Shown here: in pieces, positions 24,601 through 64,000 of the stretch
How the letters are laid out: each line of letters begins with the position of its first letter
How positions within the stretch are numbered: position 1 is the stretch's first letter
From: Emiliania huxleyi CCMP1516
Lineage: Eukaryota
Assembly: GCF_000372725.1 (NCBI RefSeq)
Contig: NW_005201287.1
Span: 202,986 to 266,985 of the forward strand
Direction of reading: 5' to 3'
DNA: 64,000 bases
The notes under the pieces: model-generated
Told to the model about the DNA's origin: nothing
The model's database searches: none
The model's input: only the letters and a program-made list of their open reading frames with translations
Translations under genes and position numbers: made by a program

Positions 24601-24642
24601 TTTCCAAACTTAGCCGCGCGCGGCGCCGTGTCGTCGAGCGCG

Positions 24643-28548: not shown

Positions 28549-29057
28549 GTGCTGTCGGGGTGGGTCGATGCTGGGACGAAAGTGACTTTTGACGCCCCAA
28601 TGTTTTCTTTTTATAAAGGATTTGTTAGAAAGAACCGAACGACACTGGGCACGGGACTGGCGCGCACTGGCACTAACACAGGTACACAGAGAAATTTAGT
28701 TGAATAGGAAGGTGAAGAACAGCCAGGCTCGGACTGGACACCAACGCGGTATGGGTGGACGCTAGACAGACGATGACGACACGCATGAGCGACACACAGA
28801 CACAAACAGGCTCACAAGACACACAGTAAATTTCTCGTAAATTTTACCTTAGGGCGCGGCAACCGGCAGCTTAGCCCAGCCGGAGGCCCCGGAGATTAAG
28901 AAACCAGGACGGGGTGAGGTAGTGGAGGGGTTCTCTTTATTCGTGAGGTGTGTGCAATCGTTCAAAGTGGAGATCGTTCAAAGTTCAATATGTAACGAAC
29001 GCAATATCGAAACGAACTCCCGCAGGGGTTGCCCCAACGTCCCGCGCCGGGGCAAGC

Positions 29058-31471: not shown

Positions 31472-33510
31472 ATGGAGACGCAGCAACTCGCCACCACGCC
31501 CGCACGGCGCAGGCATCCGCGGCTGGCGCTGCTCGGCGCGGTGGTGGCCGCTGTGGGCCTCCTCCTCGTCGTTGGCAGCGCTGGTGGCCGCCAATTGCTC
31601 TTTGAGGAGGCGGGCGAGGAGTACGGTCTGCTCGACTTTATGGGCGAGACACGCGTGCGCAGCTTCATGGGCGGACATCGCGTCCCGCTCTCCGAGGCGA
31701 CGCCGGCCTCGGACCTCATCGAGCTGCCGAAGGGCTGCCACTTGCGCACTGGCCTGATGACCACGGCGCTCAACATCTTCATCGACGACTTTCTAAGAGG
31801 GGGGCCGTGGCCGCGGCCGGCGGGGAGGCCGTCGCGCAAGCGGCTCGTCTCCCAGCTAGGCACCTCCCTCCTCCTCCACAACAAGACCTTCACCGGCAGC
31901 ACCGCCTCGCCTCGTCTCTGCGGCGCTGGCTGCCGCCTCCACCTCGCAGTGCTGTATCTGTGAGCAGGCATCGACATCGGCCACGTCGAGATCGGGACAT
32001 GCTGGATCCCGGGCCCCGAGGGCAACCGCCTCCTCCCCGACTTCCTCGCCGTCCACGTCACCGGCGTCCAACTCGCCTCTCCGCCTCGGCTGCTCCCTCG
32101 ACCCGCCCGGAACCTTCTCGGAGCCTTCCTGCAGGCATCAAGCTGGCCCTCCGCCTCAACTACACGCTCGAGCAGGCGCACCCGTGGGGCTCGGTCCAGC
32201 TCGGCGGCGGGACCATCGACACCACAGTGCAAGGCGACACACCAGCACCGCACCGCCCCTGAACCAAACCACTGCCGGCCCAACTCCTTCGCCTCTTCCC
32301 CGCACCTCTCCCCCGCACCTCTCCCCCGCACCTCTACCCCGCACCTCTCTCGCACCTCTATCCGTGCCCCTTCCGCACCTTTCCGCAGCAGCCGAGATCC
32401 CCCCGAGATTTCCCGAGACTAGGCGCCACCCTGATCAGCTACCGCGAGATCTCTCAGATCACACACCGAGATGACTCGAGATTGCCTAGGCGCCATCCTG
32501 ATCAACTACCTCGATCTGCACGACTTCAACAACACGATCAAGCACTGCGGAGGGCTGATGGGCACCTCCGAGCTGAAGGCACAGACGCAGCCGAGATGCA
32601 GACGAGATGCAGCCGAGATGCAGAGCAATGCGGCCGAGATGTCGTTGAGATACGCCGAGAGAGAGCCCCCCCCCCTTTCTGCCCCGCAGGTGCACGGGCT
32701 TCTCAACCTCGAGAAGGAGACGATGGAGGCGCCTCCCGCCCCTCCTCCCCCCCCCCCGTCTTATGGAGGTGTAATCCATCTCCCCTCACCCTCCCCTCAC
32801 CCTCCCCTCACTCTCCCCTCACCCTCCCCTCACCCTCCCCAGGCCGACGACCTCTCCGCCGACCAGACCTTCGTGCAGGAGCAGTGCAACGGGCCGAGCT
32901 ACTGGGACTACGGCCTCGGACCACGCCCGGACGGGCTGGTCGACGCCATCAACCACGAGGTGCGACGCTCCTTTTGGAAGGACTACGTGGCCCCGCCGCC
33001 CTCGCCTCCGCCGCCGTACTTGTGCGACTGCGAGTGGACGCTGGAGTCCGCCAAGCGTAGATGCGGAACACGAGAGGCAGCCGAGAGATACAGCCGAGAT
33101 ACAGCCGAGATGCAGCCGAGATGCAGCCGAGGTGCAGCCGAGATGCAGAACACCGGCCTGCCGCGTATTGCGAGTAGCCCTCGAGAGGCGAGGCGAGCTC
33201 GACGTCTGTTTAGCTGCCGCTGCGCTCGCTGCCCCCCTCGCACCCGCACCCGGACGCTCTCTCCTCTCGACGCAGGTTCGCCTGCCCGCACTCTGAGCCG
33301 CTGCAAACGGCAAAGACGTTCGCGGAGGACGACGGCTCGGCCTGCTTCGTGCACTGCTGCGTCGACCAGCACTACCGCGAGGTGTACGCGAGGCAGCCCG
33401 CGGCGGCGTCGTACGGCTCCTATTATGCAGGGGAGGAGGAGGGCGAGGAGGAGGCGGAGCAGGACGGCGAGGAGGAGGTCCAGGCTTCACGAGGGTGGTT
33501 TACCTTCTGA
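31472..33510 (+). CDS. Multi-exon type II membrane protein; possible BPI/TULIP-like beta region and Cys-rich, acidic C-terminus
   Basis: N-terminal TM LALLGAVVAAVGLLLVV; about 6 short introns splice in frame to ...EEEVQASRGWFTF*. The fold call is tentative. Confidence 0.65.
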
Positions 33511-36991: not shown

Positions 36992-39900
36992 TCACACGTA
37001 TCCGTAAACGTAGAACTTGCACACCGTCAGCCCCGTCGCAGACGGCCGGTTGAGGTAGATGTAGCGCCCCAACGCGTTGATCTCCACCTCCAACATCACG
37101 TTCGATGACACGCTCACGTCCGACTTCACCAGCGCGTTGCCCGTGTACGTCTCTGCCGTCGTGCCGAGATAGATGTCAATGCCGGTCAGACGCTGTGGGC
37201 AGCAGTCGTTGCGGTTCTGAAGCCGCACGTAGCGCACATACACCTCGCTCCCGAGGTTGACGCCCCACCATTGGCTTGTGTAGTGGCCGCACTCGGCCCA
37301 CGGTCGTCCCGTCGTGCTGTCGGCGTATGACAGGTCGCTCACGGGCGCCTGCTTGTCGTAGATGCTCGAGTCCTGGTAAGTGGTGGCGGCGCTGAGGTCG
37401 AGCAGCTGCACCTCAGGCGGCGGCGGCGGCGGCGGCGACGATGACGGTGCAGGCGGCGGTGGCGGCGGCGACGGCGGCCCAGGCGGTGCGGCTGAGGCGA
37501 AGACGTAGAACTTGCACACCGTCAGCCCCGCCGCAGACGGCCGGTTGAGGTAGATGTAGCGCCCCAACGCGTTGATCTCCACCTCCAACATCACGTTCGA
37601 TGACACGCTCACGTCCGACTTCACCAGCGCGTTGCCCGTGTACGTCTCCGCCGTCGAGCCGAGATAGATGTCGACGTCCGTCAGCCGCTCCGCGCAGCAG
37701 TCGTTGCGGTTCTGCAGCCGCACGTAGCGCACATACACCTCGCTCCCGAGGTCGACGCCCCACGTGTGGCTTGTGTATTGGCCGCACTCGGCCCACGGCC
37801 GTCCCGTCGTGCTGTCGGCGTATGACAGGTCGCTCACGGGCGCCTGCTTGTCGTAGATGCTCAAGTCCTGGTAAGTGGTGGCGGCGCTGAGGTCGAGCAG
37901 CTGCACCTCAGGCGGCGGCGGCGGCGGCGGCGACGGTGACGGTGCAGGCGGCGGTGGCGGCGGCGACGGCGGCCCAGGCGGTGCGGCTGAGGCGAAGACG
38001 TAGAACTTGCACACCGTCAGCCCCGCCGCAGACGGCCGGTTGAGGTAGATGTAGCGCCCCAACGCGTTGATCTCCACCTCCAACATCACGTTCGACGACA
38101 CGCTCACGTCTGACTTCACCAGCGCGTTGCCCGTGTACGTCTCCGCCGTCGAGCCGAGATAGATGTCGACGTCCGTCAGCCGCTCCGCGCAGCAGTCGTT
38201 GCGGTTCTGCAGCCGCACGTAGCGCACATACACCTCGCTCCCGAGGTCGACGCCCCACGTGTGGCTTGTGTATTGGCCGCACTCGGCCCACGGCCGTCCC
38301 GTCGTGCTGTCGGCGAATGACAGGTCGTTCACGGGCGCCTGCTTGTCGTAGATGCTCAAGTCCTGGTAAGTGGTGGCGGCGCGGAGGTCGAGCAGCTGCA
38401 CGTCAGGCGGCGGCGGCGGCGGCGAGGCGGACGGCGGCGGCGGAGAGGGCGAGGCGGACGGCGGCGGCGCAGGCAAGGCGGAGGGAGGCGGCGGCAGAGG
38501 CGGCGGCGGCGACGGCGAGGCGGACGGCGGCGGCGGCGACGGCGAGGCGGACGGCGGCGACTCAGGAGGGTACCCCGGCGGGGCCGCCGGCGGGACCTAC
38601 GGCGGTGGCGAAAGCGCCGGCGGCCGAAGCGGCGGCGGCGACGGNNNNNNNNNNNNNNNNNNNNNNNNNNNNNNNNNNNNNNNNNNNNNNNNNNNNNNNN
38701 NNNNNNNNNNNNNNNNNNNNNNNNNNNNNNNNNNNNNNNNNNNNCGGCTGTGCACTGCCACCGTGCCGCGGGTTTTCACATCGTCCGCTGGCATGGGCGG
38801 CGGCCGGGAGGACGGCGGCGGGGACGGCGGCAGAGGCGGAGAGCTCGGTGGGGCCAGCTGGCCAGGAGAGTGAGGTGACGGCGGCGGCGGCGAGGGCGAG
38901 GCGGACGGAGGCGGCGGCGACGGCGACGCCGACGGCGGCGGTGGCGACGGTGACGCCGACGGCGGCGGTGGCGTGGGCGGCGGTGGAGATGGTGGCGGCG
39001 GAGATGGCGGGCTCGGTGGGGCCAACGGAGAGAGCCTTGTGCAGAGGTTCTTCTCCTCAAACTCGGCAATGATGTCTTGGATGGTGCTACCAAATATGCT
39101 GTTACCCGGCGTTGCAATGGCCTCCAGCGTGTCGTTGCTCACCCCTCCGAAGCCAACTGCGAAAAGGACCAGGTCTGGGTCTTGCTCCTTGATCAGCTGC
39201 GCCTGCCGTATCGCCTCGGGCTTTTGATAAGGTCCGATGTCGTTTCCGCAAAGACTCCCGGCCTTGTAATCGCCGAGCGGGCTGTTGTTAAAGTCCCAGT
39301 TCTCGTAACAGGAGTCGTCGTTTGCGACACAACCTGGGTTGCGGCTGCAGGTCTGCTCTCCATCGGTCAGGAGTAGCATGACCTTCGTGACACCTGAGCG
39401 GCCAGTAGCGAGCAGCTGCTCTCCCATGAGGAGCCCGTTGGAGATGAAGGTCCATCCATACGGGGGACCGCCGTTTTTGTAAACCTCAATGGCAGACGTG
39501 AGGTCGCCAGTGTTGAAGGTGAGGTCGCTGAGCTTGGTCGTGTCGGAGGCAAACTGTACCAGCCCCACGTTAGCGACTGTCTCGGCGAGATCCAAGGAGT
39601 CCACAACTTTCTGCGCAAACGTCGCCACATCACCCCGGCTGTTTGTTATGCTGCCGCTGGCATCAAGAATGATCACCAAGTCGCCGACCAAGCTGCACGG
39701 GAGTGGCGGCGGGAGCGGCGAGGGCGGCGGCGGGGACGGCGGCAGCAGCGGCGGCAGCGACGGTGACGGATGCGATGGCGGGCTCGGCGGGGCCAACGGA
39801 GAGAGCCTTGTGCAGAGGTTCTTCTCCTCAAACTCGGCAATGATGTCTTGGATGGTGCTGCCAAAGATGCCGTCCCCAGGCGTTGCAATGGCCTCCAGCG

Positions 39901-41833
39901 TGTCGTTGCTCACCCCTCCGAAGCCAACTGCGAAAAGGACCAGGTCTGGGTCTTGCTCCTTGATCAGCTGCGCCTGCCGTATCGCCTCGGGCTTTTGATA
40001 AGGTCCGATGTCGTTTCCGCAAAGACTCCCGGCCTTGTAATCGCCGAGCGGGCTGTTGTTAAAGTCCCAGTTCTCGTAACAGGAGTCGTCGTTTGCGACA
40101 CAACCTGGGTTGCGGCTGCAGGTCTGCTCTCCATCGGTCAGGAGTAGCATGACCTTCGTGACACCTGAGCGGCCAGTAGCGAGCAGCTGCTCTCCCATGA
40201 GGAGCCCGTTGGAGATGAAGGTCCATCCATACGGGGGACCGCCGTTTTTGTAAACCTCAATGGCAGACGTGAGGTCGCCAGTGTTGAAGGTGAGGTCGCT
40301 GAGCTTGGTCGTGTCGGAGGCAAACTGTACCAGCCCCACGTTAGCGACTGTCTCGGCGAGATCCAAGGAGTCCACAACGTCCTGTGCAAACGCCGCCACA
40401 TCGTCCCGGCTGTTTGTTATGCTGCCGCTGGCATCAAGAATGATCACCAAGTCGCCGACCAAGCTGCACGGGAGTGGCGGCGACGGCTGCTGCGGTGACG
40501 GCGGTGGCGGCGAGGGTGGCGGAGGCGAGGGCGAGGCCGACGGGGGAGGCGGCGAGGGCGAAGTGGAGGGCGGCGGAGGCAACATCGGCGGTGCCGGCGG
40601 CGGAGGCGAAGGAAGAAAGGGATCATGCGCCGTCTCGCAGTTGAAGCCGTCATTGGTCGTGGTTTCGTAGGCTGCATTGATGCGCGTGAGATCGACGGTG
40701 GTACCGGCACCGAGTCCGCAGGCATGCGTGGTCCAGTTGCAGGCCCCGATCGCGACATCGAGCTGTGCGACGTCAACCTTCAGCACGCCCACGCCGCTGT
40801 TCGCCGCAAAGTAGAGCTGCACGCCGATCTCGTTGACGTACTTAAAGCCGGCGCCGAAAGTGACGAACGGTCCGGGACCCGGGCACCCATTGCAGTCATC
40901 CCATACAAGACGAGTACGAATGAGGGCGTAGCCGTCGATCTCCTCTCCAGCAACTCTCATGACGAACATGGAGGCGTCCCTCTCGCCGAGCCAAACGAGG
41001 TACGTCCGGCCTTCAAGCTCGTACGTGATGAGATCGGCATAGTTTTGCTTCACACCCTCTGCGGCATTGTTTTGCTTGAACGGCTTCCAGTCAATCACAA
41101 TGTCGTTGCTGTCAAACACGTAGAGTAGACTGTATTTGAGATAGTTCTCCGAGATCCCTGTATCGTTCCAACCGAGCTGATGTATGAGATCACCCCTCGT
41201 GAGCCCGAGCGTCTCCAAGTCAGTTGCAAAGTCTGGCGCCCCAAAGTCCGCAATTAATTCCGGATAGCCTTCATAGAGCCACTTTCCCGGGCAAACGTCG
41301 TCGGTGTTGACGGTCAGACTGCTCACGCTCCGGACTGCGAACAGGTCGTGCCCTCCCGAGCTCACAAAGTAGGTGTCGTTGTGGATAGCACCAGCGTAGA
41401 GATAGCCACCATTGTAGTCATCCTTTTTACTGCTTCGCTGTACCCTGCAGAGGCACTGCACCGGCTGCTCCGCCTGGTCGGCGGACAGGCGGCACAGGTT
41501 GTAGTCATCGCTCGGCATGCTTGAATCACGGAAGAGGCCATAGGCGATCGAGTCCTTCTGGTTGTAGGCCATCGCGTTCATGGTCGGCGAGGGAGTCGGT
41601 GCGTTGGGGTTGTACCTGGTGTCACTGAACCTGGAGTCAAAGGTGTAGACGAGGTTGTAATCGCCCGTCTTCAGATCCAACTCCACGAGTTCGTAGTCTT
41701 GCGTAGTCTCGTTCAACACTGTCTGCATTGGATAGGAGCGGTTGGCACAGTCGAACTTGCCAACGTCGGCGGCCGCAGCAGCGGCAGCGGAAGCCAGCAG
41801 GACGGCGTAAACCGCACAGCGTGACGCGGACAT
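36992..41833 (-). CDS. Large secreted protein: signal peptide, N-terminal beta-rich domain, 2 VWA domains, SPPP linkers and 3 F-type-lectin domains; spans the gap and an in-frame TAG at 38597-38599
   Basis: MIDAS motif DASGS..T..LTDG twice (771-bp period); WGVDLG...RNDCCAERL three times (495-bp period). The sequence right of the TAG up to the gap is in frame with the lectin ORF; continuity across the gap is assumed. Confidence 0.8.
38645..38744. other. Assembly gap (100 N)
   Basis: Run of N. Confidence 1.
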
Positions 41834-42087
41834 AGCACGGGTTAAGACTCTGAGAGCGAGGGCAAGCGTCGGGCGTCAGTCGCAGACGATTGGCGAGGAC
41901 GCACGAGAGAGAGAGAGGAGGCAGTCTTGTCGTAGGGCATCTCATCGTGGTAGGCAGAGGATGGTGGGGAGTCGTTGTATGGTACACGGAGGATCGCGAA
42001 CGAACCGGGGAGGCCGACTAAGGCAGTTTTTGGTGAGAAGCTGTCACGCAAGGTCGAAGGTGAGAAGCTGTCGTCTCTTGCGGGTTT

Positions 42088-44015: not shown

Positions 44016-44754
44016 TGCGAGCGGTGCCACTTACGCTGCCACCGTGAGCGTAGGTTCTCTCGAGCACGGAGCTCACGCGGCTCTACTCGGAGGAAGAGCG
44101 GAGCTGCATGGCTCTGCGCGCGCTGATGCCGCGCGCTGGCGCCGGTCTCGTGTCGTGCCATGACGAGAGCCCCGAGTGCGACGAGACTGGGGTCCCGTCG
44201 CGAGGGTGCGAGACAGTGCTATCTTCACATCAAATACCGTGGATAGGTACGAGGAGTATTGGTTCCCGTCGAGGGGGAGCCGCAGCCCGCAGAGCCGTGG
44301 CTCCACCCCTCCGAGTGGCTCGCTCGCTCCCCCGAGTCGGCGCTTCGCCCCCTCCTTGGGAGCGATGGGCGTGAGCAGCCTTTTCACAGCGCGTGTCGCG
44401 AGTAGGCTCGTGCCCGTGCGGGACCGCAAGGTGTGACTTGGTTGGCACCGCACTCGCGAGGAAGATAGGGGGTCAAGGCGTTCGCTATTTCGGTGGGCGT
44501 CGTCGACGACGACTTTCGAGAGCAACGGCCAACGCTTTGCGCAGCCGTCCGGTCTCCGGAGGCCCGCGAGCCAGAGACGCGGCGCCGTGCCGAGGCCGCG
44601 ATGCGCGAACGGAGATTTTTTGCGGCTCGCTCAGCAGCGCGCTTGGGGCGCGCCCTGGGACCGCTGTTGGCTGAGACAGACTGAGTTGCAACCCGCGATT
44701 ACACGTGCGGGGGGGGGGGGGGCATGTCGCCATGTGCGTCAACCAATTTACGCT

Positions 44755-47811: not shown

Positions 47812-49677
47812 CTAACCTGCTGCGACCCTCGCCAGCGCCATCTTGAGCGGGTGCTTCCCGTCGGGCGACGGGTAGTCTTGCTCGGGTGGCAGCACGGTGA
47901 CGTCTTCAAGCGGCCGGCCCGCCTTCTTGGCGCAACGCTCCAGGCTGTCCACCCACTCGTCCAGCTCGACCGACGCGACATGGTTCACGGCGAGGACCTG
48001 GCCGCTCAGCAGGGCGCGTGTGGGGAGAGGGCCAATCCTGTTCGCAGCGTGGCTCCTGTTCGCGGTCTCTCTTCCCTGCGCTGGGACAGCCGTGCACCGT
48101 GTGAAGCGCGATCAGCGTCAATGTGAGCAGCGTTCCTTCAACGCTCGAACCGCCGCCTGACTGCGCTCTAAGATTGTGCGGCGCCTGACTGCGCTCTAAG
48201 ATTGTGCGGCGCCTGACTGCGCTCTAAGACTGTGCGACGACTGCGCGCACCGTTCCGCCCGGCCGCGTCGCGAGCACACACGGCTTGAAGAGCGACTGGT
48301 AGTCCCTCACCAAGTCGACGGCGCCTGCAGGAAGTCTCCTAGAAAGCTGCTAGAAGGCTCCTCTGGAGGGCTCTTTAGCCCTCCGAATCGACGGCACCTG
48401 CAGCAGTCTTGGTCCACGTCGGCGGGTCGAGCACCTTCTCACAAGAGAGCTCCTAGAAGGCTCCCAGAAGGCCCCCAGAAGGCTGGTCCGCGCGGGCGGA
48501 GGTGGCACCACGACGTCGAACGCGCGCTGCCGCAGCCGCGGGGCGAGGCTGCTCGCGCCGCCTCCGCCTCTCCCGCTGGCCCTGCGATCCCCGCCCCGCC
48601 CGCCGCCGCGCCCTCGCCTAGGGTTGTGTAGACAAGGTCAGGGTGTGAGCACTGCATCGAGTGCCAGCTGGAGTCACGGGTCTGTTTCCAGCATCTAGGA
48701 GCCGTCGCCCGCCGCGCGAGCGCCGGTCTGTGTTGGTCGGCAGACCGGCCAGCTGGCGCAGCGCGGGAAGGGCATCGCCGCACACGCACTCGAACGCGCC
48801 GGCGGGCAAGCCTAGAGGCTCCCGTGGAGGCTGCGAGAGACCCCTTTTTTTGCACTCGAACGCGCCAACAGGCAGGCCATTCAGCCGCGCGTTCTCTCGC
48901 CCGACGTCGAGCGCCGACTGCGAAAAGTCGAGGTTCGTCACCTGCAGGAAGACTCCGAGACGCTTCCTGGAAGGTTCGTGAGGTAGACAGGATCAGTCGA
49001 GGGTCGTCACGTGTCGCGCTCCCCCCGCGAGCGCCGCCACGCCGGCACCGCACCTGTCAATGATCGATCAAGATTCATCGTGAAGAATCAATGGCATCGT
49101 CACGCCGGTGCCCGCACGTGAAGGCGAAAGCGTTGAGCACGTCCCTCCCCTCGCTGTTTGCAGCGAGCCAGCGGCGCGCCGCGCGAAAGTCGAGGTAGAG
49201 GTTCGGGTCGCGGCCGGGCGGAGGCACCTGCAGGGAGGCTCCGAGAAGGCTCCTAGAAGGGTCTCGCAGAGGCCTGGAGATGCGGCCAGGCGGACGCACG
49301 TCGATGCGGTACTTGAGGCCGATCTCGGAACCCACGTGCTCCGCAGCCAGCAGCGGCGCGCCCGGCGGCACGAGCACACCCTCGCGCGACCGCTGCCGCT
49401 TCTGCCGCGCATTCCAGTGCACGGCTCGCAGCGGCACGCCGGTCTCGTCCTCGACGAGGTCGCGCAGCCGCGGCAGCAGCTCCTGCGGGTCCATGTCTGG
49501 CGGATCGCGAAAGGTTTGCCAAAGGAGCAGGTCGCCGAAGCGCTCGAGGGTGCAGCCAGGCTCGCCCTCGGTGGCGCCGTGGAAGAGACGGTAGCAGTCG
49601 GTGCCCTCGGCGTGGAGCGAAGGGAGGAGCGTCTGCGAGCGGCTGGCCAGCGCGGCTCGGACAGAGTCGAGGAGCAT
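47812..49677 (-). CDS. Class I SAM-dependent methyltransferase, RlmI/RlmK-like; 8 introns (start may lie further upstream)
   Basis: YRLFHGATEG, NLYLDFRAARRW, VLNAFAFTCGAGVAAL.GGA, NLDFSQSAL..GRENARLN, FDVVVLDPP, DLVRDYQSL. Confidence 0.88.
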
Positions 49678-50095: not shown

Positions 50096-53048
50096 CTGTG
50101 TTAGTGCCAGTGCGAGCCAGTCCCGTGCCCAGTGTAAAGAAAGAAAGAAAACAGACAGCCCAAGGGAGGGATGGGAGGACGGCACGCCGCCACCACACAG
50201 GGATTTTAAGGAGAGGAGTGTGGTGCGCTAGCCGTCGCCCACCCTAGGGGGTCTGCCTCTTCCTATCTCTTTTCGCAGTCTCTCGCCGATTCTCGCTGCA
50301 ACCTTCATGCCACCTCGCGGCCGTCCCACTCTCGTCGTTCTCTCCCTTGTCACTTCCTCCTCTGTCGCGTCATTCTCTTCTGCCTCGTCCTGCGCCGCCG
50401 CCGCCTGCCGTTCCCTTGTTCTCTCGGCTTCTTTCGCCTTTCGGCGCAGCTCCGCCCTCCTTGCTGCATATCCTGGCCCCTCGAGTCTATCGAGCTCCCC
50501 TCGCGCAAGGACCACGTTTCTGACTCCCACTCCGATCATTTGCCTACAGGTCATGTTGTTGCTCAGGTCCACTCTCTCTTCGAACACTCGTGCCTCTACG
50601 GATGATGCCGGCGCTGGGGTCCCCTTCGGATGCATCGTGACATCTGACAACTGAATTTCCACTGGTTCGTCCTCCTCGGAGTCATCTTCTCCGTCCTCCT
50701 TCCGTTCGGCTCTTCGCTCGGTACGTTCGGTGTGGCTCACCCTCCATGCCGTGAACAGGCGCTTTATCCACCCTATATTCTGGACCGGAGCCCGACCGCC
50801 GAAATTCGGACAATGCTCTTTTCCCACGCCCGCCACATGACGCCCACTGCAGCCGCGTCGGTCGGCGCGCGCCGACGCCGACCATCACCGCCGACCGACG
50901 GCTCGCACGGCCGTGCGGTGAGCAAAAATTTGGGTCGCTGCGCGCCTGCCGGATGCTCTGCGACGTCTGGACGCTCGCCAGAAACGCCAGGAAGCTTGCC
51001 TTCCACCCCTGGGCCCGAGGGCGAACGGCAGTGGTCGGCAGCCTCTGCGACGCTCCGATCGGCTCCTCGACCTCATCGCCTGCGACGAGCCAGCATGGCT
51101 CGTCGCTCGACGGCAGCCTGCTCAGTATGCTCTTGGCATTCTGTACAGCCTCGCCAGGCTCTCTGAGACGGCCTGCAGGGCCGGCGCGGACCGCCTCGGG
51201 CGCGATGGCCCTCCTCAGTACCTACCTCTTTGATGCCTGTCGGCTCTCCAATCTCGTCGCCGGCGGCAGGCCCGCATGGCGAGCTGCTCGATGGCAGCCT
51301 GCTCAGTACGCCTTGGACAGTGACTTCTGCCTCGCTGCTCTTACTGCAGCCGCCTCCGGGGCCGGCGTCGGCCGCCTCGCTTCGCCAGTGCTGTCTACGC
51401 CTGCGACACGCGTGTCGGCTCGCCGCCCGCGTCGCCCGCGGCGGGCCCGCATGGCTCGCCGCTCGTCGGGAGTGTTCCCAGCAGGCTGTGCAGGGCAGTC
51501 TGCCTCACTCAGGGCGCCGCCACCGCTGCGCGGGGCCGACACCGGCGCTGCTGCCGTGAACACTGCCGCCGTGTACGTCACCATCGCCTCGCTTCGTCGC
51601 CGATCTCGCCGACGCCGCTCGCCGCTCGCCGCCGCCCTGCCCTGCCCTGCCCTGCCCTCGCACAAACAAACAAACACACACCCACACCCACACACACATA
51701 CACACAGACACACATACACACACACAACACACCCTGCCCCAACCTCGAGCGCCCCGCGCCTCCCGTCTCACGCCCGGCGCCTCACGCCGCGCGTCCCACG
51801 CACGCCCCGCGCACCGCGCCCCCTCCCCTCGCGCCTCACGCCTCCCTCCCCACCCTCTCAGGCATTTCTCCTCCCTGCTGCTCGCCGACTCCTCCCCCCC
51901 CCGCATGATCGACGACTACCCGTCCTCCGGCGACTCCTCCCTTTTCGGCGCCAACGTCTACTACCGGGGGACCGTCGCCCTCGGGCGTACTGGAATGATC
52001 CCAGCGGCACACGTCTACGAGGGGGGGCTCCGAAAGGTCGGCATGCTGGCATGTCGGCTTACTAGGCAGGTCATTGACCTCCCCCCCGCTTGTCCACCCG
52101 GCGTGAGGGGCGGGAGCGCAGCCATTCCAACGGCTGGGAAAGCTTCTGAACGGCCGTGCATGCGCCTGCATGCCGGCTTACTAAGAAGGTCCCTCGCTCC
52201 TGCTCCTCTCTCGGAAGACGCGCGCCGGCCTGGGGGACTCGCTTGCGATCCCGCTCCAGCCAGAGGCCGCGTGAGGCGTGTGGGACGGTGTACGCTGGGG
52301 CTCGGCCCCAAGTGCACTGGCCTCGCGTCTCGAGGGGAGGGCGGCTCGTAACTGAGGTTCGCCGTCAGGGACAGTCGTCCTCCCCTTCTCGGCCGGGCAA
52401 CTAGGTCATTGAGGCCCCCCCCGGGGAAGAGACCGAACGGCCGGCCGTCACTCTCGGCCATTCCAACGGCCAGGCCGCTCGCTTAAGGCTGATTGGCTAG
52501 ACGAGCGGCCTACCTCCATGGGGCTGTTGGCACGGGGGGAGGTGTCAATCACGCTCCTGGGACGCCGGAGAGATCGGGTTGGTCTCCCCCGCCTTCAGCC
52601 CTGACCCGACGGGGACGCCATCACCCTCGCCCAGGGATCTACAACGCTGTCTTAAGGTCCGACAGGTTCGGCACCGGGCACCGCCTCGGTATACAAAATG
52701 CGCCTGCGGGCGGACCCTCACAGATCACAGATCACCCTATATTCTTCTCTCGTTCCTCTGCCCGTGCCTTGGTCTTGTCGTTGTTTCGCACCCATGTCTG
52801 TATGGCAATCGAGGCTGCCTTCCCCACTACCTGTAGTTCACTCGTCACCTCTTCCGCGAGCTCCCTCCTCTTTCTTTCGGGTATGGAGTCCGTGAGTGCG
52901 GGTAGCGTACAGGCAATCACGGGTGCTATTTTGTCGTACTCCTCTTCGGCGAGCGCTCCAAATCTAGACCCTTTCGCCTTTAAGGAGGCTGCCCTCGCTC
53001 GTCTCAGGAATGTGGCGGTGTCTTTTGTGCGAGGCAGCTAAATTGTAA
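50096..53048 (-). mobile_element. 5'-truncated non-LTR-like retroelement with 12-bp TSD AATTCTTTTCGC, interrupted by a nested insertion
   Basis: TSD at 50084-50095 and 53049-53060. ORFs 52732-52920 and 50228-50836 join in frame (EEREKNIG|WIKRLFTAW) once the nested insert is removed. Confidence 0.72.
50782..52732 (+). mobile_element. Nested ~1.95-kb insertion with 13-bp TSD CACCCTATATTCT and a (cacagat)2 tail
   Basis: TSD at 50769-50781 and 52733-52745. Confidence 0.8.
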
Positions 53049-53155: not shown

Positions 53156-55711
53156 ATGGCCAGCGGCGCGCGGCCGGCCTTGCCGGGCGGTCACGAGCTT
53201 GGCGACCAGCTGTACTACACGGGCTCGAACCAGTCGTCTAAGGATGGCGACAAGCTCGTGCACGGCCAGCAGGGCGAGGTCGTCGGCCCTGCGACCGGCG
53301 AGCACCAAGGCAACGGCCTGCAGATGCTGTTTCCAGGGAACAAAGTCTACATAGACTGCTCTCTGCTCTGTCTCAGCCGCGAGAAGCCGCCGCCTCTGCC
53401 GGGCGGTCACGAGCTTGGCGACCAGCTGTACTACACGGGCTCGAACCAGTCGTTTAAGTCTGGAAGCAAGCTTGTGCACGGCCAGCAGGGCGAGGTCGTC
53501 GGCCCTGCGACCGGCGAGCACCAAGGCAACGGCCTGAAGATGCAATTTCCAGGGAACCCACGCTGGATAGATTGCCGTCTGCTCAGGCTCAGCGTCGAAA
53601 AGCCGCCGCCTCTGCCGGGCGGTCACGAGCTTGGCGACCAGCTGTACTTCACGGGTCCGAGCGAGTCGTTTGAGAGTGGCGATAAGATCGTGCACGGCCA
53701 GTCAGGCGAGGTCGTCGGCCCTGCGACCGGCGCTATGCACCAAGGCAACGGCCTGAGCTTGCAGTTTCCAGGGAACAAAGGCTCCATAAACTGCTCTCTG
53801 CCAAACCTCAGCAGCGAGAAGCCGCCGCCTCTGCCGGGCGGCTACGAGCTTAGCGAACGGCTGTACTACACGGGCCCAAACCAGTCGTTTGAGAATGGCG
53901 ATAAGCTCGTGCACGGCCAGTCGGGCGAGGTCGTCGGCCCCGCGACCGGCGAGCACCAGGGCAACGGCCTGAAGATGCTGTTTCCAGGGAACAAAGACTG
54001 GGTAAACTGCAAACTCGCCTCGCTGTCCCACGAGCTTAGCCTGCCCGGTGGCTTCAGAGTGGGAGAGGAGCTGTACTTTATTGGCGGAGGGTTCGTCGAG
54101 GAGCAGGGGGACAAGGCCGTGTTTGGCTGCCGAGGATCGGTCACCGGCCCAGCCCGCAACGGCGACGCTGACGCTGTTTCCATGTCTTTCTCCGGCAACC
54201 GAGGAGACGTGCACTGCCGGGCCGAAGAGCTCAGCCGCGAGCCGGCGCCCTCGCTTCCTGGCGGCTTCATTCTCGGTGAGCATCTCTACTTCACCGGAGA
54301 GGACCAGATCGTCGGGCGCGGCATCCTCGTGCGCGGCTCGCGTGGTGAGGTGGTGGGCCTGGGTTTGGAGCCGGACAGCCTCGCGATGCGCTTTTCAAAG
54401 GCCGGACAGCCTCGCGATGCGCTTAACCACCCGGTCAACATCGCCTCCCTGAGCCGCGACGATCCTCCGTGCGCCGTGTCCGTGCCCGAGAATGTATCGC
54501 GAGCGCGCCGAGCGCTCGCCGCACGCAGGGAGGAGCAGGAGCGGGCTGCGGCAGCGGCGGCGTCGCAGACGGCAGAGGACATTGCAGCGGAGGCGGAGCG
54601 GCGGCAGCAGCTAGCGGCGGAGCTCCTGGAGGAGGAAGCTGCGGCCAGGGCTCCGCCTCCACTTCAGGAGGCGGGACGGAGGAGGAGGAGGAAGAAGAAG
54701 CAGAGCGGCTTTCGCGGGTCGAGGAGCAGCGCAACCGAAGGAGCAGAGGGATCGGCCGACTCCACCTCTAGGGCGGCGCCAGCGCGCGAGTCGGCTTCAG
54801 AGAGCGACGAGGAGGAGCGCGTGACGCCAGCCGAGGAGGCGCGACGGGCTGAGGAGTCGGAGCGGGCGGCGCGGCGAGAGAGGCAGGCGAGGCTGCTCGA
54901 GGCAGCGCGGCGGGAGAGGGAGGAGCGTTTGGAGAGGGAGGCTAGGGCCGAGGCCGCGGCCGCGGCTGCGGTGGAGAGCGAGGCTCGCGGCAGGCGACAG
55001 CAGGCGGCGCGAGCGGCGGAGGAGGAGCGGAAGCGAGCAGCGCGGGCGGCGCTGGTGGACGAGATGGAGGCGCAGGCGCGGCAGGAGGAGGCGGCGCGCG
55101 CCGCGGCACCGCTGAGGACGACGCAGGCTGAGCAGTCCAGCACGCGGTCGGCGATCGAGCAGGCGCTCTCCCAGGCTAGGTCAGACGCGGCGGCGGCGAG
55201 GGTTCGCGAGGCGACGGCGGGGTCAGAGGCGGAACGGGCGAGGTCAGAGGCGGAACAGGCGAGGTTAGAGTCGGAACAGGCGAGGTTGCAGGCGGAGGCG
55301 GCGAGGGCGAGGGAGGAGGAGGCGAGGGGGCGAGAGGGGGAAGCAAGGGGGCGGGAGGAGGCGGCGAGGGCAGAGGCGGAGGCGGCGACGGCACGCGAGG
55401 AGGCGCTCACCATGCGACTCGCGGCGCTCGAGCTAGGACCCCCACCGGCCGCCCCGCCACCGGCAACCGCAATCAGCGCTGTGGGAGGAGGCGTCGGAGG
55501 CACCTTCCACGGTGCCACGCTGCCGCAGAAGGTCTCGCGGATCTGTACGCATTTGGGGCTGGACGCGCGCTCCTCGCTCTCTGCGGCGGTGGCGGCGGCG
55601 AACGAGAGCACAGGGGTCGCCGCTGAGGGAGGGCTTCTGCAGCAGGTGGACCGGCTGATCGCGCTGCTATTTGGGGGGCCGCAGGGGGGCGCTCCGGAGG
55701 AGGTAAGGTAA
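53156..55711 (+). CDS. Intronless 851-aa protein: six ~72-aa repeats, a coiled coil and a short helical C-terminal domain
   Basis: LPGGHELGDQLYYTG...LVHGQQGEVVGPA...FPGN repeats with 216-bp period; E/A/R-rich helix. Confidence 0.85.
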   Translation: MASGARPALPGGHELGDQLYYTGSNQSSKDGDKLVHGQQGEVVGPATGEHQGNGLQMLFPGNKVYIDCSLLCLSREKPPPLPGGHELGDQLYYTGSNQSFKSGSKLVHGQQGEVVGPATGEHQGNGLKMQFPGNPRWIDCRLLRLSVEKPPPLPGGHELGDQLYFTGPSESFESGDKIVHGQSGEVVGPATGAMHQGNGLSLQFPGNKGSINCSLPNLSSEKPPPLPGGYELSERLYYTGPNQSFENGDKLVHGQSGEVVGPATGEHQGNGLKMLFPGNKDWVNCKLASLSHELSLPGGFRVGEELYFIGGGFVEEQGDKAVFGCRGSVTGPARNGDADAVSMSFSGNRGDVHCRAEELSREPAPSLPGGFILGEHLYFTGEDQIVGRGILVRGSRGEVVGLGLEPDSLAMRFSKAGQPRDALNHPVNIASLSRDDPPCAVSVPENVSRARRALAARREEQERAAAAAASQTAEDIAAEAERRQQLAAELLEEEAAARAPPPLQEAGRRRRRKKKQSGFRGSRSSATEGAEGSADSTSRAAPARESASESDEEERVTPAEEARRAEESERAARRERQARLLEAARREREERLEREARAEAAAAAAVESEARGRRQQAARAAEEERKRAARAALVDEMEAQARQEEAARAAAPLRTTQAEQSSTRSAIEQALSQARSDAAAARVREATAGSEAERARSEAEQARLESEQARLQAEAARAREEEARGREGEARGREEAARAEAEAATAREEALTMRLAALELGPPPAAPPPATAISAVGGGVGGTFHGATLPQKVSRICTHLGLDARSSLSAAVAAANESTGVAAEGGLLQQVDRLIALLFGGPQGGAPEEVR

Positions 55712-57510: not shown

Positions 57511-57879
57511 CCATGTACACCCGCTCAGCCTCTGGAAACATGGGCGCAGCCTTGAGGGCGGTGACGTTGGCGTCGTTGCCGACGGAGACGTGCAGCTCGC
57601 CCAGAGCGGCGGCCTAGTGCGTACCAGCGGGCATCAGAGCACTGAGAGCTGGCTTCGACCGCGACATGATGTGTTACGGATCACGGTACGGGTGGAGCGA
57701 GCCTCCTCGAAGAAGGCAACGTGGCCCGAGTGCAATAGGTCAAAACAGCCGGAGACGAAGACTCGCCGCCTTCGCCGCGGCCGCCGCCGCTGCGCGTGCG
57801 AGTGAGCGGTGAGCGCCAGCACGCCCAGCACGAACCCGGCGGCGGCAGGCGCGAACGATGAAAGCCACGAAGGCGGCAT
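56927..57879 (-). CDS. Cytidylyltransferase-like (HxGH, RfaE-II/TagD-type) protein with an N-terminal anchor; several introns
   Basis: RVFVSGCFDLLHSGHVAFFEE|AAALGELHVSVGND, FPEAERVYM, KPDIFFVNHDGD, RSSTSIK. Confidence 0.85.
57447..57506. repeat. Intronic (CT)n microsatellite
   Basis: Directly visible. Confidence 0.95.
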
Positions 57880-58927
57880 GGTCGGTGGAGGACAGCGCTA
57901 AGAAAAGAATTTTGAAAGGCGCTGCGCCTGCTCAGGGTGTGTGGCAGCCAGCTGGCTGTGTGTCTTGTGAGCTTGTTTGTGTCTGTGTGTCGCTCGTGCG
58001 TGTCGTCATCATCTGTCTAGCGTCCACCCATACCGCGTTGGTGTCCAGTCCGAGCCTGGCTGTTCTTCACCTTTCTACCTACCTACCTGCCTGCTACTTC
58101 TGAGCGCGCTCGCGAACATTACGGGGCCGCAGGAACGCGGGACTCGCAAATAAGCCCACAGCCACTTAAGCTGACGCATGGCTCTCATTTATTAAGTGTT
58201 CATTCAGGAGCATTCGCAATGCGTTCGTTCGGGGGCACGAGTGGAGGCGACGTTTGAGAGGGCGGTCGGGGAGGAGCAAAAAGTGGTGCTTCCAAAGAAG
58301 TAGTTTTCGGGATGAAGGCAGGCTTGATGAAGGCAGGCAGGCCACGTGTCTCCAACCGGCGATCCCTCGGCGCCCGCCGAGAGAAAAGGCCCCACGGCTG
58401 GCCATACACGCCACCGCCCCTCCGTCCGTTCCAATGGGTCTCTGCTCGTCGACTGCAAAGCCGGAGCCGCCCTCGCCCGTCGAGACGGTGATGCAGATGT
58501 ACAAGTCCTTTGGTGAGGGCGATATCGCCGCCATCCTCAAGGCGGGAGATCCGTTCAATACCAAACAACTCTAACACACTTTGTTTTTGGATTTTAGTAG
58601 CGAAAAGAAAAAAGAAAGGACTCGCACGCACTGGCACAAACAATTTCACCACAAAAGAAGAACGAAAGACCCCAGATCGGCATCCATGCCTTTCTGGACA
58701 GGGTGGCCCGCCACAACGACCCCTGGAATTGCAACTTTCCTCCCTTGATCCCTTAGCGTAAAAAAGAAACATTGGGTTTGTACTATTACAACGAAGGCGC
58801 TCTCAAAAAAGAAATAAAATCTGCTCGCCAGTCACCACGAAAAGAAGAAATAACCCAGGTCACAAAAAGCGATCGCTCCGAGTGTTGTGGCCGACCACTT
58901 TGGGTTGAGCCCGGACGGCGGCGCACA

Positions 58928-61900
58928 ATGGCGCCAGTGATCGCCTTGTTTGCAGCGCTTGTACAGGAATCGCCAAAATCAGCGTGTGGCCCCGTCAGCA
59001 GCTCCGAGAGCCGCAACTGCACCCAGCGGTGCCCGTCTGAGCTCTCCACTCTCTGCGACGCACACAAGGACGTCCCGGCGGCGCTACTCGGCTTTGAGGA
59101 GGACAGCCTGTGGATCCCGCGTCTGGATGAGTTCAACTCGTGCACTGGGTCCCGAATAACCCTCACCTACACCCTTCTGGGAGAGGACGGCATGGCAGAT
59201 GCGCTTGAGGCCGACTGTGGCACCGTCGCCCCGACGCCGTCAGAGGGCGCTGGCATCTACGACGGCTATGTGGTGCAAGCCCCGTGGGTTCCCAATGTGG
59301 AGCCGTTGCTTGAGAATCTGTCTCCGCGCATCGCCGCGACGCCAGAAATCGACTGGCTCGACATCAACCCCACCAGCCGCTCGATTGTCTCCTTCAGCAA
59401 TACGGCGCGCTGTCTCGCCCGCTCTCCTCTCCTCATGCCGAGTGCCAAGCTCACGGGTCGTGCCCGGCAGGTTCGCGCGCTGCCGCTCGACGTCGACTTC
59501 ATCGCGATCGGGTGGCGCGAGGACGTCTTTCGGCAGTGGCAGCCTGAGCTCGAGGCGATGGGCCTCTGGCCAGGTCCGCCGCGAATACCGGCAGGAAGCT
59601 CTGCGCTGCTCCCGTACATGCGCATCATAGATTCGGCGAGTGGATGTAGGCCCGCCAGAGACGCTAGAGGAGCTGGTCGCCGTCTCCGAGTTTCTCAAGG
59701 GCAAGGACCACAACGGCGACGGCATCGGCGACTGGGGCTTTTGCCTCACGCCGCAGCCAAACTACTTCACGGCCTTTCTGGCGCCGCTGATGATGAGAAA
59801 CGAGCAGGCGTGTGCATCCGGGGACTGCAGCGGGGACCGGACCGGCCAGAACCTCTTCTTCGACGTGCAGAGCTTCGAGACGACGGTCGGCAACGCCGCC
59901 TACATGCAGGTGCGCTGCCCCTCCCCGCCCCGCCCCGCACTGACCCCCTGAAAATCTGCCGTTGATAAGGAGATCAATGGATTGCGCGGTATTATGTATT
60001 CTCAATCCCTGTCTAGATCACTGATATGCTGGTGCGATACAGCTGTACCTCACTCTCACCCTCACTCTCCCCTCCCTCTCACCCTATCGACGCAGCCCTC
60101 CCGCCCCCCCCCACATAGGCGCTCCAACTCTTCCACCGCGTCCTGCGCGCCTCAAACTGCCCCGACCAGGCCGAGTCGGCGGACTGGGTGCCGCAAGCCC
60201 TGCGCGGCGACCCCCTGTTTTCCGGCGCCGGCAACAGCAAGTGCGACCGCAAGTCCGCCTTCGCGTCCGGCCGGTGCGCGGGCGTCATCTCGATGCCGGG
60301 CACGCTGACAAAGATGCTGACGGGCAAGTACACGCCGGTGACGCCGCAGTACCACGTCAACGCCTCGAGCGGCGAGAACACGACGTGGGCCCTGCCGGGG
60401 CATGACGCGGCGGACGGGTACTACTGGGGCCGCCGCGCCTTCTTCCCGGGCTCGGAGAAGGTGCTCGACCCTGCGACGGGAGGGCTGGTCGAGTGCACGC
60501 CCGACCTCTGCCCCAAGGCCGTCCGTCACAGCCGGACGGGCAAGCTGGTCGACCGAGTCCTCCTCTGCCTCTCGGAGCCTTCGAGGACCCTTCCAGGAAC
60601 CCTCTCATAGGCAAGCTGGTCAACCGAGCAACCTTCTTCTCTGAGGGGGGGGAGGCGTACGCGCTGCGCGCCTCCTCGCCCGAAGGCAAGAAGAAGGCCC
60701 TCTTCGACCTCTTCACGTGGTTCTCGGAGCTGCCCCCGTCCAAGGTGCCGCTGACCGGCCTCTACCGCCAATCGCAAGTGGCGAATGCTGCGTCTTCGGT
60801 AGCCGAGCTGGTCGAGGAGGGCTGGCCGCAGCAGGCTGCGGACGACCTCGTCGAGCTCCTCGCCGAGCTCTTCGACGAAGGCAGCAACGCGGCGCAGGAT
60901 CTGCTCCTGCTCGGCTTCAGCGACTACAACGAGCGGCTCGACCAGCGGCTGCTCGACGAGTTCCTGCTCACGCCGCCCTTCCTCACCGCACCCGAGGTCG
61001 ACGAGCTCGCGTTCGCCGCCGCGAGCGACGCGCTAGTCAGCCAGCTGCGGAGCGACTACGACGATGTGACCCGCGACTACGGGGGCGCGGCGGGGCAGGT
61101 GCAGCGGTGGCGCGCGTCGCTCAACCTGCTGCCCCTCTCGGCCGCGGCGCTGTGCGACGGCTTCTACGCCTCGCTCGACGAGGACGAGAAGCGCCGCTGC
61201 TCCGAGGACAACCTGCAGATCCTCGTGGCCACACTGTGTACGGTCGCCGGCTTGCTCGTGCTCGTGCTGCTCGTGCTCGGATGCCGCTCGATCCGGAGGG
61301 GAGTGAGGCGCAAGGCGGAGCTCGAGAGAGCCGCCGACGCGCTCGTGCGGCGGCAGGTGACGGACGCGATGGGCTACGTCAACGAGCTGCAGACTCCGAT
61401 GGTGCTGATGCGCGCCTCGGACTTCATGCGGCTCGGCGAGCTCCGCCCGCACGAGGAGCTGCGCGACGCGGGTGCGGTGGTCTTCGTCGACTCGGTGAGC
61501 GACCCCTTCTTGACGGAGCACCTGACCGTCTTCTTCTCGCACCAGTGGCTCGGCTACCAGGCGCCCGACCCCGACGCCGGGCCGGTGCACCAGCGCTCTC
61601 TCTCGCTGCCATGCCCAACCCCCCCCCTCCCCCCCTCCCCCCCCCCCCCCCCTCCTCCCCCCTCCTCCTCTTAGGCGCCCGACCCCGACGCCAAGCAGTT
61701 CCGCTCCATGTGCCGCGCGATCCTCGCGATCGGCGAGCGGGAGGGCGTCGCACCAGACGCCATCTACGTGTGGGTCGACTGGGTCTCCATCCCGCAGCGC
61801 GTCAAGAGCGTGCAACAGCTGTCGATCAGCTCGCTGCCCCTCTTCGCCTCGCTGCTGCACTGCTTCGTCGTCGTCACGCCCGAAGCGATGCACCACGAGA

Positions 61901-63886
61901 GCCGCCAGAGGTGCGACCGCTCCACCTTCCACTCGCGCTGCTGGTGCCGCGCCGAGGTGATGTCGCATTGGGCTCGCCGCGGCGCAGCGAACATGTACTA
62001 CGCCGATGAGGAGGGGCTGCAGCCGATGGCGCCCAAGGGGGTGGCCTCGGTGGCCGAGGAGGAGGACTTCCTCTCGTCTATCCACGTGTTCGAGGGAGAG
62101 CTCTCCTGCTGCGCGCTCGGCCACCCGGGCGGACGGCCGTGCGACCGCGAGCTGCTCGTCTTGCCCATCCTTGGGCTGTACGGCCAGATCTACGAGCAGG
62201 TGCGTTGCGGGCACCCACCTCGGCCAGTCTCGCCGGATCTCGCCTAATCTCGGCGAATCTCGGGCAGGTGGTGCACTGCGGGGACCCGGCCGCCGCGAAG
62301 GCGAGGGCGGAGGAGCAGCCGGAGGGCGAGTTGTCGCTGGCGACCGTCTCTCACTCAACGGACTCGACCATCGGGGGAGGAGGCGGCGGCGGAGGAGGAG
62401 CAGGAGGAGGAGGCGAGGCGGGCGGTGACCCGTACCCGATCTCGGAGCAATCTCGCTGCCCTCCGATGCGGTCCGAGATGCGGTCCGAGGCGAGGGGCGG
62501 CGGCCGGCACGCGAGGGCGTGCGACCAGTGCGACGAGGCCAACTCGCCGCACAAGGCGCTGCGCTTCAGCGGGGCCGAGACGGCGGGCGACCCTACGAGC
62601 GACGAGAGCCGCCGTCGCTCCTGCGCTTCTGACGACGTGGCGCGACGAGCCGTGCCCCCTTCGGCTCCGCACAGCCCTCCCGTTTCTGGACGCGCGGCCC
62701 TTCGCTTCTTAGGCGCGGGCAAGCGTGACTACACTCCTACGCACTCGACACTACAGCCAAGCAAGCCTTGGCGTAGGCGCACGCTCGCGTCATCTTCGAC
62801 ACGGTCCGCCCGCGCGTCAAGGCAAGCTGGCCTATGGCCACCGCTCCTCCTCCTCCTCCCTTGTGTGTCTCACACGGCACCGCTCTCCCTTGCGGCACAG
62901 GCAATCTTCCCGCGAACCTACGTCCACGTCTCCGCCGCCGGCAAGGAGGAGAGACCACTTTTCGGCGACCTCATCTCGGCCATCGAGTCCGAGATCGACG
63001 CGCGGGGCGGTGGTGGCGGCCGGCTGAGGCCAACCTTTGGCAGGTACCAGCCCGGTGCGAAGTACGCTGAGCCGCTCGACGCCGCCGCCACGCCGGGCGG
63101 TCGGCCACGCATGCACCGCCCCCCTTCGTCGATCGCGAGCAGCGTGACTTCGCCCTACAGCCGCCGCCGCTCCGCCTCGACGGGGCACGCTGTCGCCTTT
63201 GGCCTTGGCGAAGCGCGCGCCTCGCGCGGCGCACTCGCCGTTCTGCCCTCTGCTCCTCCCACCTGCAGCAGCCTTCTCGGAGCCGGGAGCCCCTCCTGTG
63301 TAGGCTCGCGCACCTCTGGCGACTCGACGGCCATGCACAAGTCATTGATTCGTTCGTAGCTCCTGTTCATAGGCTCGCGACACTCCGGCGACTCGTCGCC
63401 CAACCGGCGCTCCTTCCGCTCCTCGCTCTCGCGGCACGGCAGCGAGATCAGCGGCTCGGTCAGCTCTGGCGCTGTGCGGTTCCGCGAGTCGGCGCGGCAG
63501 GCGCTCGCGCTGAGTCGAGCGGGGGTGCTCTCGGGCGGCGGAGCGAGGCGGCAGGTGCCGCGCCGCTCGTAGCTCGGCTCATCTCGGCTCATCTCGGGCT
63601 ATCTCGGGCTATCTTGGCAGGTGCCGCCGCGCCACTCGACGGCAAGCTCGACGCCGTCCAGCGGGGGCGGCGCGAGGCGGGGCGCACCTTCGCAGGCGCA
63701 GATGAGTCGAGATGAGTTCCGAGGTGAGCCGAGGTGAGCCGAGGTGATGCCCCGCCACAGGCGTGGAGCTCCTCGCCCGCCGCGTCTCCCGCGAGGCCGA
63801 GGCGGCTCGGCTCGTTCACGGAGGACGAGGACGAGGGCGGCGGCGAGGAGGAGGGCGCTGTCGCCGCGCCGTCGCAGCTCGTGTGA
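58928..63886 (+). CDS. Single-pass receptor: signal peptide, type 2 periplasmic-binding-protein-like ectodomain, TM, cytoplasmic HET/TIR-like domain and disordered tail; about 11 introns
   Basis: YDGYVV..PW, LENLSP, ALPLDVD...REDVF, PPETLEEL (SBP); TM ILVATLCTVAGLLVLVLLVLG; FFSHQW, VWVDWVSIPQ, FHSRCWCRAE (HET). Introns 63304-63372, 63555-63620 and a further one at ~63696-63760 extend the frame to TGA at 63884-63886. Confidence 0.8.
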
Positions 63887-64000
63887 GCTCCTCTTGAGTG
63901 CATGCTGGCGCCGCAAGAGCAGCGCGGGATTGGTCGTTTCGCCTCGGAGACAGACCTTGGCGCCGGGCTGTAGTAGTCCGCCCACCCCCTTTCACCCCTC

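Follow-up and report, generated by a model that had tools for sequence, protein, structure and literature searches.

The window, i.e., the whole stretch of 64,000 nucleotides of Emiliania huxleyi CCMP1516 DNA analyzed here, carries on its minus strand a nine-exon gene encoding an RlmI/RlmK-like SAM-dependent methyltransferase (47812-49677; ATG at 49677, stop at 47812). Removal of its eight GT/GC-AG introns yields an open frame of 367 amino acids with one terminal stop. A database protein of 367 amino acids, located on a 1.3-kb contig, equals this product except for a few residues, and its cluster includes EMIHUDRAFT_351819 of Emiliania huxleyi. The product matched PF10672 and aligned to the structures 3c0k (RlmI) and 3v97 (RlmK half of RlmKL), which it has in common with RlmI (YccW) and the RlmK half of RlmKL. 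Its score against the RlmI NCBIfam model was 80.8 bits and thus far below the cut-off of 712; the NCBIfam cut-off for the RlmK type was likewise missed by a wide margin. Moreover, the profile match begins at RlmI residue 95, and the N-terminal ~95 residues of RlmI are missing. In the profile, 'vnh' (NH) is placed opposite the RlmI motif FSCS and resembles FSNN of RlmK, and the DPPT motif is as in RlmK. The cysteine of the RlmI SCS motif has a catalytic role. In contrast to RlmI, the 23S m5C1962 methyltransferase, the Emiliania protein possesses neither this cysteine nor the N-terminal domain and, as deduced from its sequence, is predicted to represent an rRNA-methyltransferase-like enzyme of the RlmI/RlmK fold, not a member of RlmI itself.

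At the start of introns of this gene, decayed copies of approximately 15-26 bases of the following exon were observed, which are referred to as echoes and are clear in six of the eight introns. The matches of 16/18, 15/16 and 22/26 previously noted for introns 1, 3 and 4 were reproduced exactly. The eight introns, all on the minus strand, are as follows:

49228-49299, minus strand: intron 1, 72 nt, GT-AG, phase 0; echo 16/18; 11-mer repeat tail ending in CCTGCAG
49054-49117, minus strand: intron 2, 64 nt, GT-AG, phase 2; ungapped echo 6/6, extended when one gap is allowed (score 8.5, rank 1 of 215); tail AT-richer and of unrelated sequence
48942-49010, minus strand: intron 3, 69 nt, GT-AG, phase 0; echo 15/16; 11-mer repeat tail ending in CCTGCAG
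48812-48877, minus strand: intron 4, 66 nt, GC-AG, phase 1; echo 22/26; stop-free and in frame; P0010 and P0030 retain it
48618-48708, minus strand: intron 5, 91 nt, GC-AG, phase 2; echo 7/8, singly not above chance
48435-48508, minus strand: intron 6, 74 nt, GT-AG, phase 0; echo 17/25; three 11-mer units of the CCTGCAG-ending repeat family
48325-48397, minus strand: intron 7, 73 nt, GT-AG, phase 1; echo 12/15; 11-mer repeat tail ending in CCTGCAG; RNA support by a loose end
47998-48250, minus strand: intron 8, 253 nt, GT-AG, phase 0; echo 8/11, no better than chance; contains a 28-nt tandem repeat

Contigs from four sequencing runs belonging to four studies, whose RNA origin is a guess from the run labels, skip 253, 74, 91, 66, 69, 64 and 72 nt, corresponding to seven of the eight introns. 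The joints of these contigs slide by a few bases, with the GT/GC-AG register falling within the slide range. For intron 7 no joint was listed; the loose end of one run, read by eye, continues into exon 8. Seven of the junctions proposed by the sequence-only reading are joined by RNA contigs and that of intron 7 is supported by a loose end, and the boundary of the latter, placed at 48396, was one base off and had to be moved to 48397. The eight introns are real, ordinary spliceosomal introns. Introns 4-8 are also contained in contigs of other strains; RNA contigs are unable to show intron absence. Furthermore, the public sequences P0001 and P0029 (compared with 48877-48786 and 49299-49210) contain LPVGAF and VRPPGR, where the exons of the window give LPAGAF and VPPPGR; the hybrid residues represent the residue of the echo fused to the exon. 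A shifted canonical junction was rejected as their source because no such junction exists, and the hybrids are therefore ascribed to an allele, to template switching or to a mistake in annotation or assembly.

In order to evaluate the echoes statistically, introns and exons were re-paired within the gene. The true pairing beats all or nearly all of the 40,320 re-pairings (permutation with windows of 10-25 nt and the first two bases left out; p 2.5e-5 to 7e-5). Introns 1, 2, 3, 4, 6 and 7 singly exceed the 99th percentile of non-cognate pairs, and introns 5 and 8 lie below the 95th percentile and show no individual echo. When all ~215 GT/GC sites of the mRNA were ranked, the true junctions of introns 1-8 reached ranks 1, 1, 1, 1, 8, 2, 1 and 30. 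The earlier claim that all eight introns show an echo accordingly stands for introns 1-4, 6 and 7 and lacks support for introns 5 and 8, based on both the percentile and the rank test. In the eight ungapped echoes, 20 of 166 bases (12%) differ, and between the window and one other strain 9 of 949 letters of an exon differ. Typical echo events may thus be roughly ten times older than the divergence of the strains, a rough estimate since echo ends were chosen by match.

A second gene of the window was used for replication. RNA defined 11 introns in the region 57600-64000, among the joints listed and blind to the echo; joints at 57793, 57794 and 63057 were dropped due to non-GT/GC-AG ends or kilobase spans, and the alternative 62713-62776 was counted apart. 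Spliced at these introns, the frame is open over 1286 of 1291 codons. The echo replicates in this set (p 1.4e-4 ungapped, 6e-4 gapped) and also in 11 frame-defined introns of three further genes (p 0.012-0.022), so that it is not restricted to the methyltransferase gene. Features outside the methyltransferase gene are listed below:

60540-60610, plus strand: RNA-defined intron of the neighbouring gene; echo 17/18; CCTGCAG-ending 11-mer repeat family
61561-61674, plus strand: RNA-defined intron; perfect 18/18 echo; C-rich tail
32064-32134, plus strand: intron of a further gene, placed by reading frame; gapped echo ranking 1 of 178; tail ending in CCTGCAG
~13610-14900, plus strand: ClpP-family gene (PF00574) with four frame-defined introns; gapped echo in 14437-14507 (rank 1 of 145), none in the others
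62640-62776, plus strand: stacked intron units 62640-62712 and 62713-62776 with no exon between; weak inner echo, 10/14
63229-63372, plus strand: 144-nt RNA-defined intron of two units; the inner unit 63304-63372 follows AG; echo 24/30
32234-32489, plus strand: 256-nt frame-defined intron; its last 67 nt (32423-32489) follow AG; echo 22/25

In total, a strong 5' echo was found in 9 of the 30 introns examined, the other 21 lacking an individually strong one. These counts exclude what may be an in-frame intron near 31800-31859, as well as the introns of a gene near 26400-28550. Strong echoes are more frequent in the methyltransferase gene (6/8) than among the other introns (3/22; p 0.003), a comparison biased by the choice of this gene for its echoes. 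The downstream exon begins with G in all 30 cases and with GT or GC in 29, compared to a fraction of 0.20 in coding sequence; in part, GT/GC at exon starts reflects a general protosplice preference (PMC3488318, as far as the consulted part of this source goes). The intron at 30584-30725 (minus strand; donor GC) is the only one of the 30 whose next exon begins with GA. Of the 19 RNA-supported introns, 15 have a donor dinucleotide identical to that at the exon start (p 0.02). The excess of similarity fades by approximately position 25. GC donors occur in 18-19 of the 30 introns. Moreover, echo strength declines with intron length (rho -0.50, p 0.005, 30 introns), and strong echoes were found in 8 of 16 introns of up to 80 nt vs. 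1 of 14 longer ones (p 0.017, the 80-nt cut being chosen after viewing the data). Among mismatches between the 30 introns and their exons, the intron carries G in 8 of 12 at +3 and in 8 of 15 at +5 (raw counts), which may reflect a tuning of donors after birth.

All statistics are based on RNA- or frame-defined introns. A blind scan of the window for AG-preceded echoes was dominated by tandem repeats (0.031 per site for AG, 0.030 for TC) and provided leads only. Among these leads are direct repeats of 12-39 nt spaced like echo introns at 27970-28040 (minus strand) and at 44176-44246, 51089-51269 and 601-669 (plus strand).

A tail of degenerate 11-mers sits 3' of the echo, and one tail family consists of GGAGCCTTCTA/C units ending in CCTGCAG. 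In introns 1, 3 and 7 and in 32064-32134, 24-30 of the last 36 bases agree, compared to 6-13 of the first 30 bases. This tail family is also present in intron 6, 60540-60610 and 63229-63303 and hence in three genes of the window; all ten hits of the 11-mer family in the window lie inside introns, on the sense strand. Contigs of other loci match the tail of intron 1, and in three of four runs the match ends exactly at the acceptor (loose ends at 49227). A strong echo accompanies six of the seven tail-bearing introns and 3 of the 23 others (p 0.0009, with a tail score threshold of 28 chosen after viewing the data). The CCTGCAG tail was found in four of eight methyltransferase introns and in 3 of 22 others (p 0.06). 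Since tail copies are 17-33% divergent and echoes also occur on several unrelated tails, no single element can be responsible. The upstream exon ends in AG in one of the eight methyltransferase introns, and the last 40 nt of the introns are unlike either flanking exon (p 0.72 and 0.36); the acceptor AG is not exon-derived.

Measured against described Introners, related copies were found in unrelated genes, and element boundaries coincide with splice sites, the tail ending at the acceptor in four introns and the donor being the first two bases of the echo. Similarity, however, is confined to the last ~36 nt and does not extend over most of the intron. The short, fixed duplication of DNA-transposon introners was not observed, the echoes being ~15-30 nt long and variable. 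A search for terminal inverted repeats, carried out without a control, gave local scores of 3-8 in the eight introns and no consistent arm. In the material analyzed here, no autonomous element, source intron or enzyme was found for the tails. The repeat-tail pattern had no matches in viral contigs, and nine scattered matches in prokaryotes were taken as chance.

Three long introns consist of two stacked units, the inner of which follows an AG. For 62640-62776, RNA shows the long skip and, in one run, the inner unit 62713-62776 skipped alone. The tails of stacked units are unrelated in two cases (tail-to-tail scores of 9 and 14, equal to background) and of one repeat type in the third. The stacked introns suggest a second event at exactly the same junction, possibly with two-step splicing. 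According to a rough count, the two to three inner echoes lying exactly at existing junctions exceed the expectation for random insertion, which hints at a junction-directed process. Duplication of a whole intron was also considered and was rejected.

In order to distinguish between gain and loss, 33 proteins were aligned. Orthologues of several lineages, with frames on 5-25 kb contigs, are without insertion at any of the eight positions, as inferred from proteins and not from DNA alignments. Among them is the Chrysochromulina parva model, also seen on contigs of up to 22 kb and uninterrupted at all eight. In P0004 and P0037, a haptophyte-type orthologue, DPPT is followed by 52 additional in-frame residues, apparently an intron that lies where the methyltransferase gene has none. 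Since P0037 (25.5-kb contig) was read through this apparent intron of 52 residues, the calls for the relatives represent plain open frames that are not splice-aware. A metagenome search for orthologous DNA gave no eukaryotic orthologue among the best 80 of 577 hits, which were all bacterial-type and uninterrupted, with 37-49% identity, and did not serve for intron mapping. In a quick tree of 59 rows hand-picked from 171 (SH-aLRT, no bootstrap), the 31 eukaryote-type rows, most of them unnamed and assumed to be haptophyte, form one clade (SH-aLRT 100) adjoining three brown-algal proteins (90). Because this clade sits beside brown algae, the methyltransferase gene appears to be old in algae. The sequence-only reading had proposed recent, repeated intron gain in a bacterial-type gene. 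Repeated gain, at different ages, agrees with the graded echoes and the uninterrupted orthologues, and the bacterial look fails as a sign of recency, the gene being old. Based on these sequence comparisons, the eight introns likely represent gains on the Emiliania branch, wholesale intron loss in intron-poor relatives being the conceivable alternative.

Based on splicing at seven of eight joints, the one-sided echo, the GT/GC exon starts and the common 3' tail with locus-specific 5' ends, an Introner-like origin is proposed, to which we assign a probability of about 70%: the introns would have arisen by insertion of AG-ending repeat DNA accompanied by a long, variable site duplication that supplies the donor. 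A short piece of repeat DNA with AG at its end would be inserted where a staggered cut opened the coding sequence, and filling of the stagger would duplicate ~15-30 coding bases. If the duplicate begins with GT or GC, its upstream copy could serve as donor and the insert as acceptor, and splicing would then restore the message exactly. Through later neutral decay and lengthening, the echo would become graded with age. Donors that stem from coding DNA would be GC in proportion to the GC:GT ratio of the coding sequence; in the methyltransferase gene, 174 GC and 49 GT dinucleotides were counted. Feldmesser et al. 2014 (PMC4028052, in the portion consulted) reported 56-65% GC donors in E. huxleyi and ascribed them to genomic GC content. 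Insertion with site duplication may offer a cause for this GC-AG majority.

Regarding the machinery, variable long duplications combined with a fixed 3' end would be somewhat more in keeping with target-primed reverse transcription than with a cut-and-paste transposase, judged by analogy with the properties of both processes. Break repair templated by a neighbouring intron is a close second to target-primed reverse transcription. In a far-reaching version, which we consider doubtful, most introns of E. huxleyi would be retro-copies of the tails of introns that the alga itself has excised. Intron RNA, which ends precisely in AG, would serve as template for a reverse transcriptase priming at a nick in the genome; 35-50 nt would be copied, and a site duplication of 15-30 nt would give the GT/GC donor. 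Any intron could thereby give rise to others, frequently within one gene and even at a junction already present, as in stacked introns. This would account for the fixed AG end, the many unrelated tails and the clustering of one tail in the methyltransferase gene. If true, it would establish a self-propagating intron cycle without a dedicated element, explain the GC-AG majority and the repeat-filled introns, and escape Introner searches that require full-length similarity.

Among the competing explanations, a rather improbable one is that old introns were remodelled without any gain, the exon-exon junction of mRNA-derived DNA replacing the 5' part of an intron while the old acceptor stays. The one-sidedness of the echo, its occurrence in the shortest introns and inner echoes at existing junctions, suggestive of junction targeting, would agree with such remodelling, as would the read-through RNA found in 89% of inspected E. 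huxleyi introns (PMC4028052, portion consulted). However, it leaves unexplained the coincidence of the echo with one tail family (p 0.0009), the absence of all eight positions in relatives and the stacking of units with unrelated tails.

Plain tandem duplication of an exon with AG|GT (Rogers model), later filled by minisatellites, would likewise produce an echo as a direct repeat of coding sequence, and intron 7 is flanked by CTGCAG at both sides. A faint mirror similarity at the other intron end (p 0.018 gapped, 0.21 ungapped; 0.58 in the third, frame-defined set) would also agree with this model. The model draws both AG and GT from the exon, yet the single AG-ending upstream exon among eight, together with last 40 nt that resemble the tails of other introns and not the flanking exons, makes it a poor candidate.

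It is very improbable that the echo was once translated, as an in-frame duplication or a retained intron, and kept its similarity by protein constraint before becoming intronic. Introns 1 and 4 are indeed in frame without stops, and intron 4 is retained in the two sequences mentioned above, but the lengths of introns 2, 6 and 7 are not divisible by three and a stop lies in intron 3. Moreover, silent mismatches (8/20 in the eight ungapped echoes vs. 27% expected, p 0.15) show no significant excess. Finally, splice-site consensus and high GC content suffice to explain introns 5 and 8, along with the majority of the 21 introns lacking a strong echo, but are refuted as the sole cause of the likeness for introns 1-4, 6 and 7, the controls using other exons of the same gene and skipping the first two bases, and five junctions ranking first among ~215 sites.

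Introner-like insertion has precedents besides the general intron-gain models (PMC3296678, PMC3488318, both consulted in part). Introners with a 3' site of their own, whose 5' site is recruited from a duplicated stretch of 3-9 bp, were described (PMC9860276; bioRxiv 10.1101/2020.10.14.339549; parts consulted). The main texts of the Introner surveys (PMC9860276, PMC12130899), in the parts consulted, do not name E. huxleyi, which is listed in their supplements: the 2022 supplement (PMC9860276) gives 79 recovered and 653 total elements, and the 2025 supplement (PMC12130899) gives three families of 5, 6 and 45 copies for CCMP1516, with an automated TSD call of 2 nt. In the entries seen, the 5-copy family (~70 nt) is annotated with 'co-opt 5' carry 3'', '10bp terminal direct repeats' and mechanism unknown. 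Compared by table entries without sequence, these families (PMC12130899) stem from the same species, and the direct repeats of the 5-copy family measure 10 bp, in contrast to the 15-30 nt, variable and GC-donor-linked repeats described here, which are strong in 9 of 30 introns and in two inner units.

The introners of Symbiodinium and Polarella glacialis (bioRxiv 10.1101/2020.10.14.339549) and of Aureococcus are similar, according to the parts consulted, in that the 3' site is carried, the donor originates from a duplication, exons start with GH and non-GT donors are common. They have fixed duplications of 3-8 nt, inverted repeats and full-length families, whereas the Emiliania duplications are long and variable, with no clear inverted repeats and with similarity in the last ~36 nt only. 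In the break-repair neointrons of Daphnia pulex (PMC4202315, consulted in part), the intron end also repeats the adjacent exon at variable length and decays with age; these neointrons show repeats of 4-12 bp in 33 among 90, AT-rich fill, canonical donors and within-species presence/absence. The Emiliania repeats exceed the 4-12 bp range, and the fill is common to several loci. The examined portion of PMC4028052 on E. huxleyi mentions no exon duplication. A description of long, widespread exon echoes in E. huxleyi was not found in the literature searched, outside which lies the genome paper, which may bear on novelty. That paper, Read et al. 2013, reportedly contains 10-11 bp repeats in E. huxleyi introns. 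Hence, the echo type of intron birth is known as a kind, perhaps already in E. huxleyi, and the length and spread of the duplications may be new.

How new introns come about is a long-standing question for which few clear footprints exist. In E. huxleyi, a model alga for which public genomes and many strains exist, a large share of the introns examined (9 of 30, in addition to inner units) appears to have preserved dated footprints, with duplications several-fold longer than those of described Introners; if this holds genome-wide, thousands of events would be available to date and dissect. Annotators should also be warned of the echo-exon hybrid junctions contained in two public methyltransferase sequences.

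Further features of the window were noted beside the intron analysis. Amid intron-rich genes, long frames that by eye seem intron-free lie at 11290-12660, 19770-20940, 22435-23650, 37000-41840 and 53160-55710; such frames presumably encode kelch-like, transporter-like and vWA-like proteins. The region 24640-24940 (plus strand) is presumably a 5' fragment of an Hsp70-like gene that breaks off. The broken frames at 23940-24200 (plus strand) had no relevant Pfam or NCBIfam hit; in our assumption, they recall the C-terminal endonuclease region of a non-LTR retrotransposon. Repeats at 53-900 recur inverted at 5114-5959, and 1641-1720 mirrors 4292-4371; positions 1-6000 of the window thus represent either a large inverted duplication or an assembly artefact.
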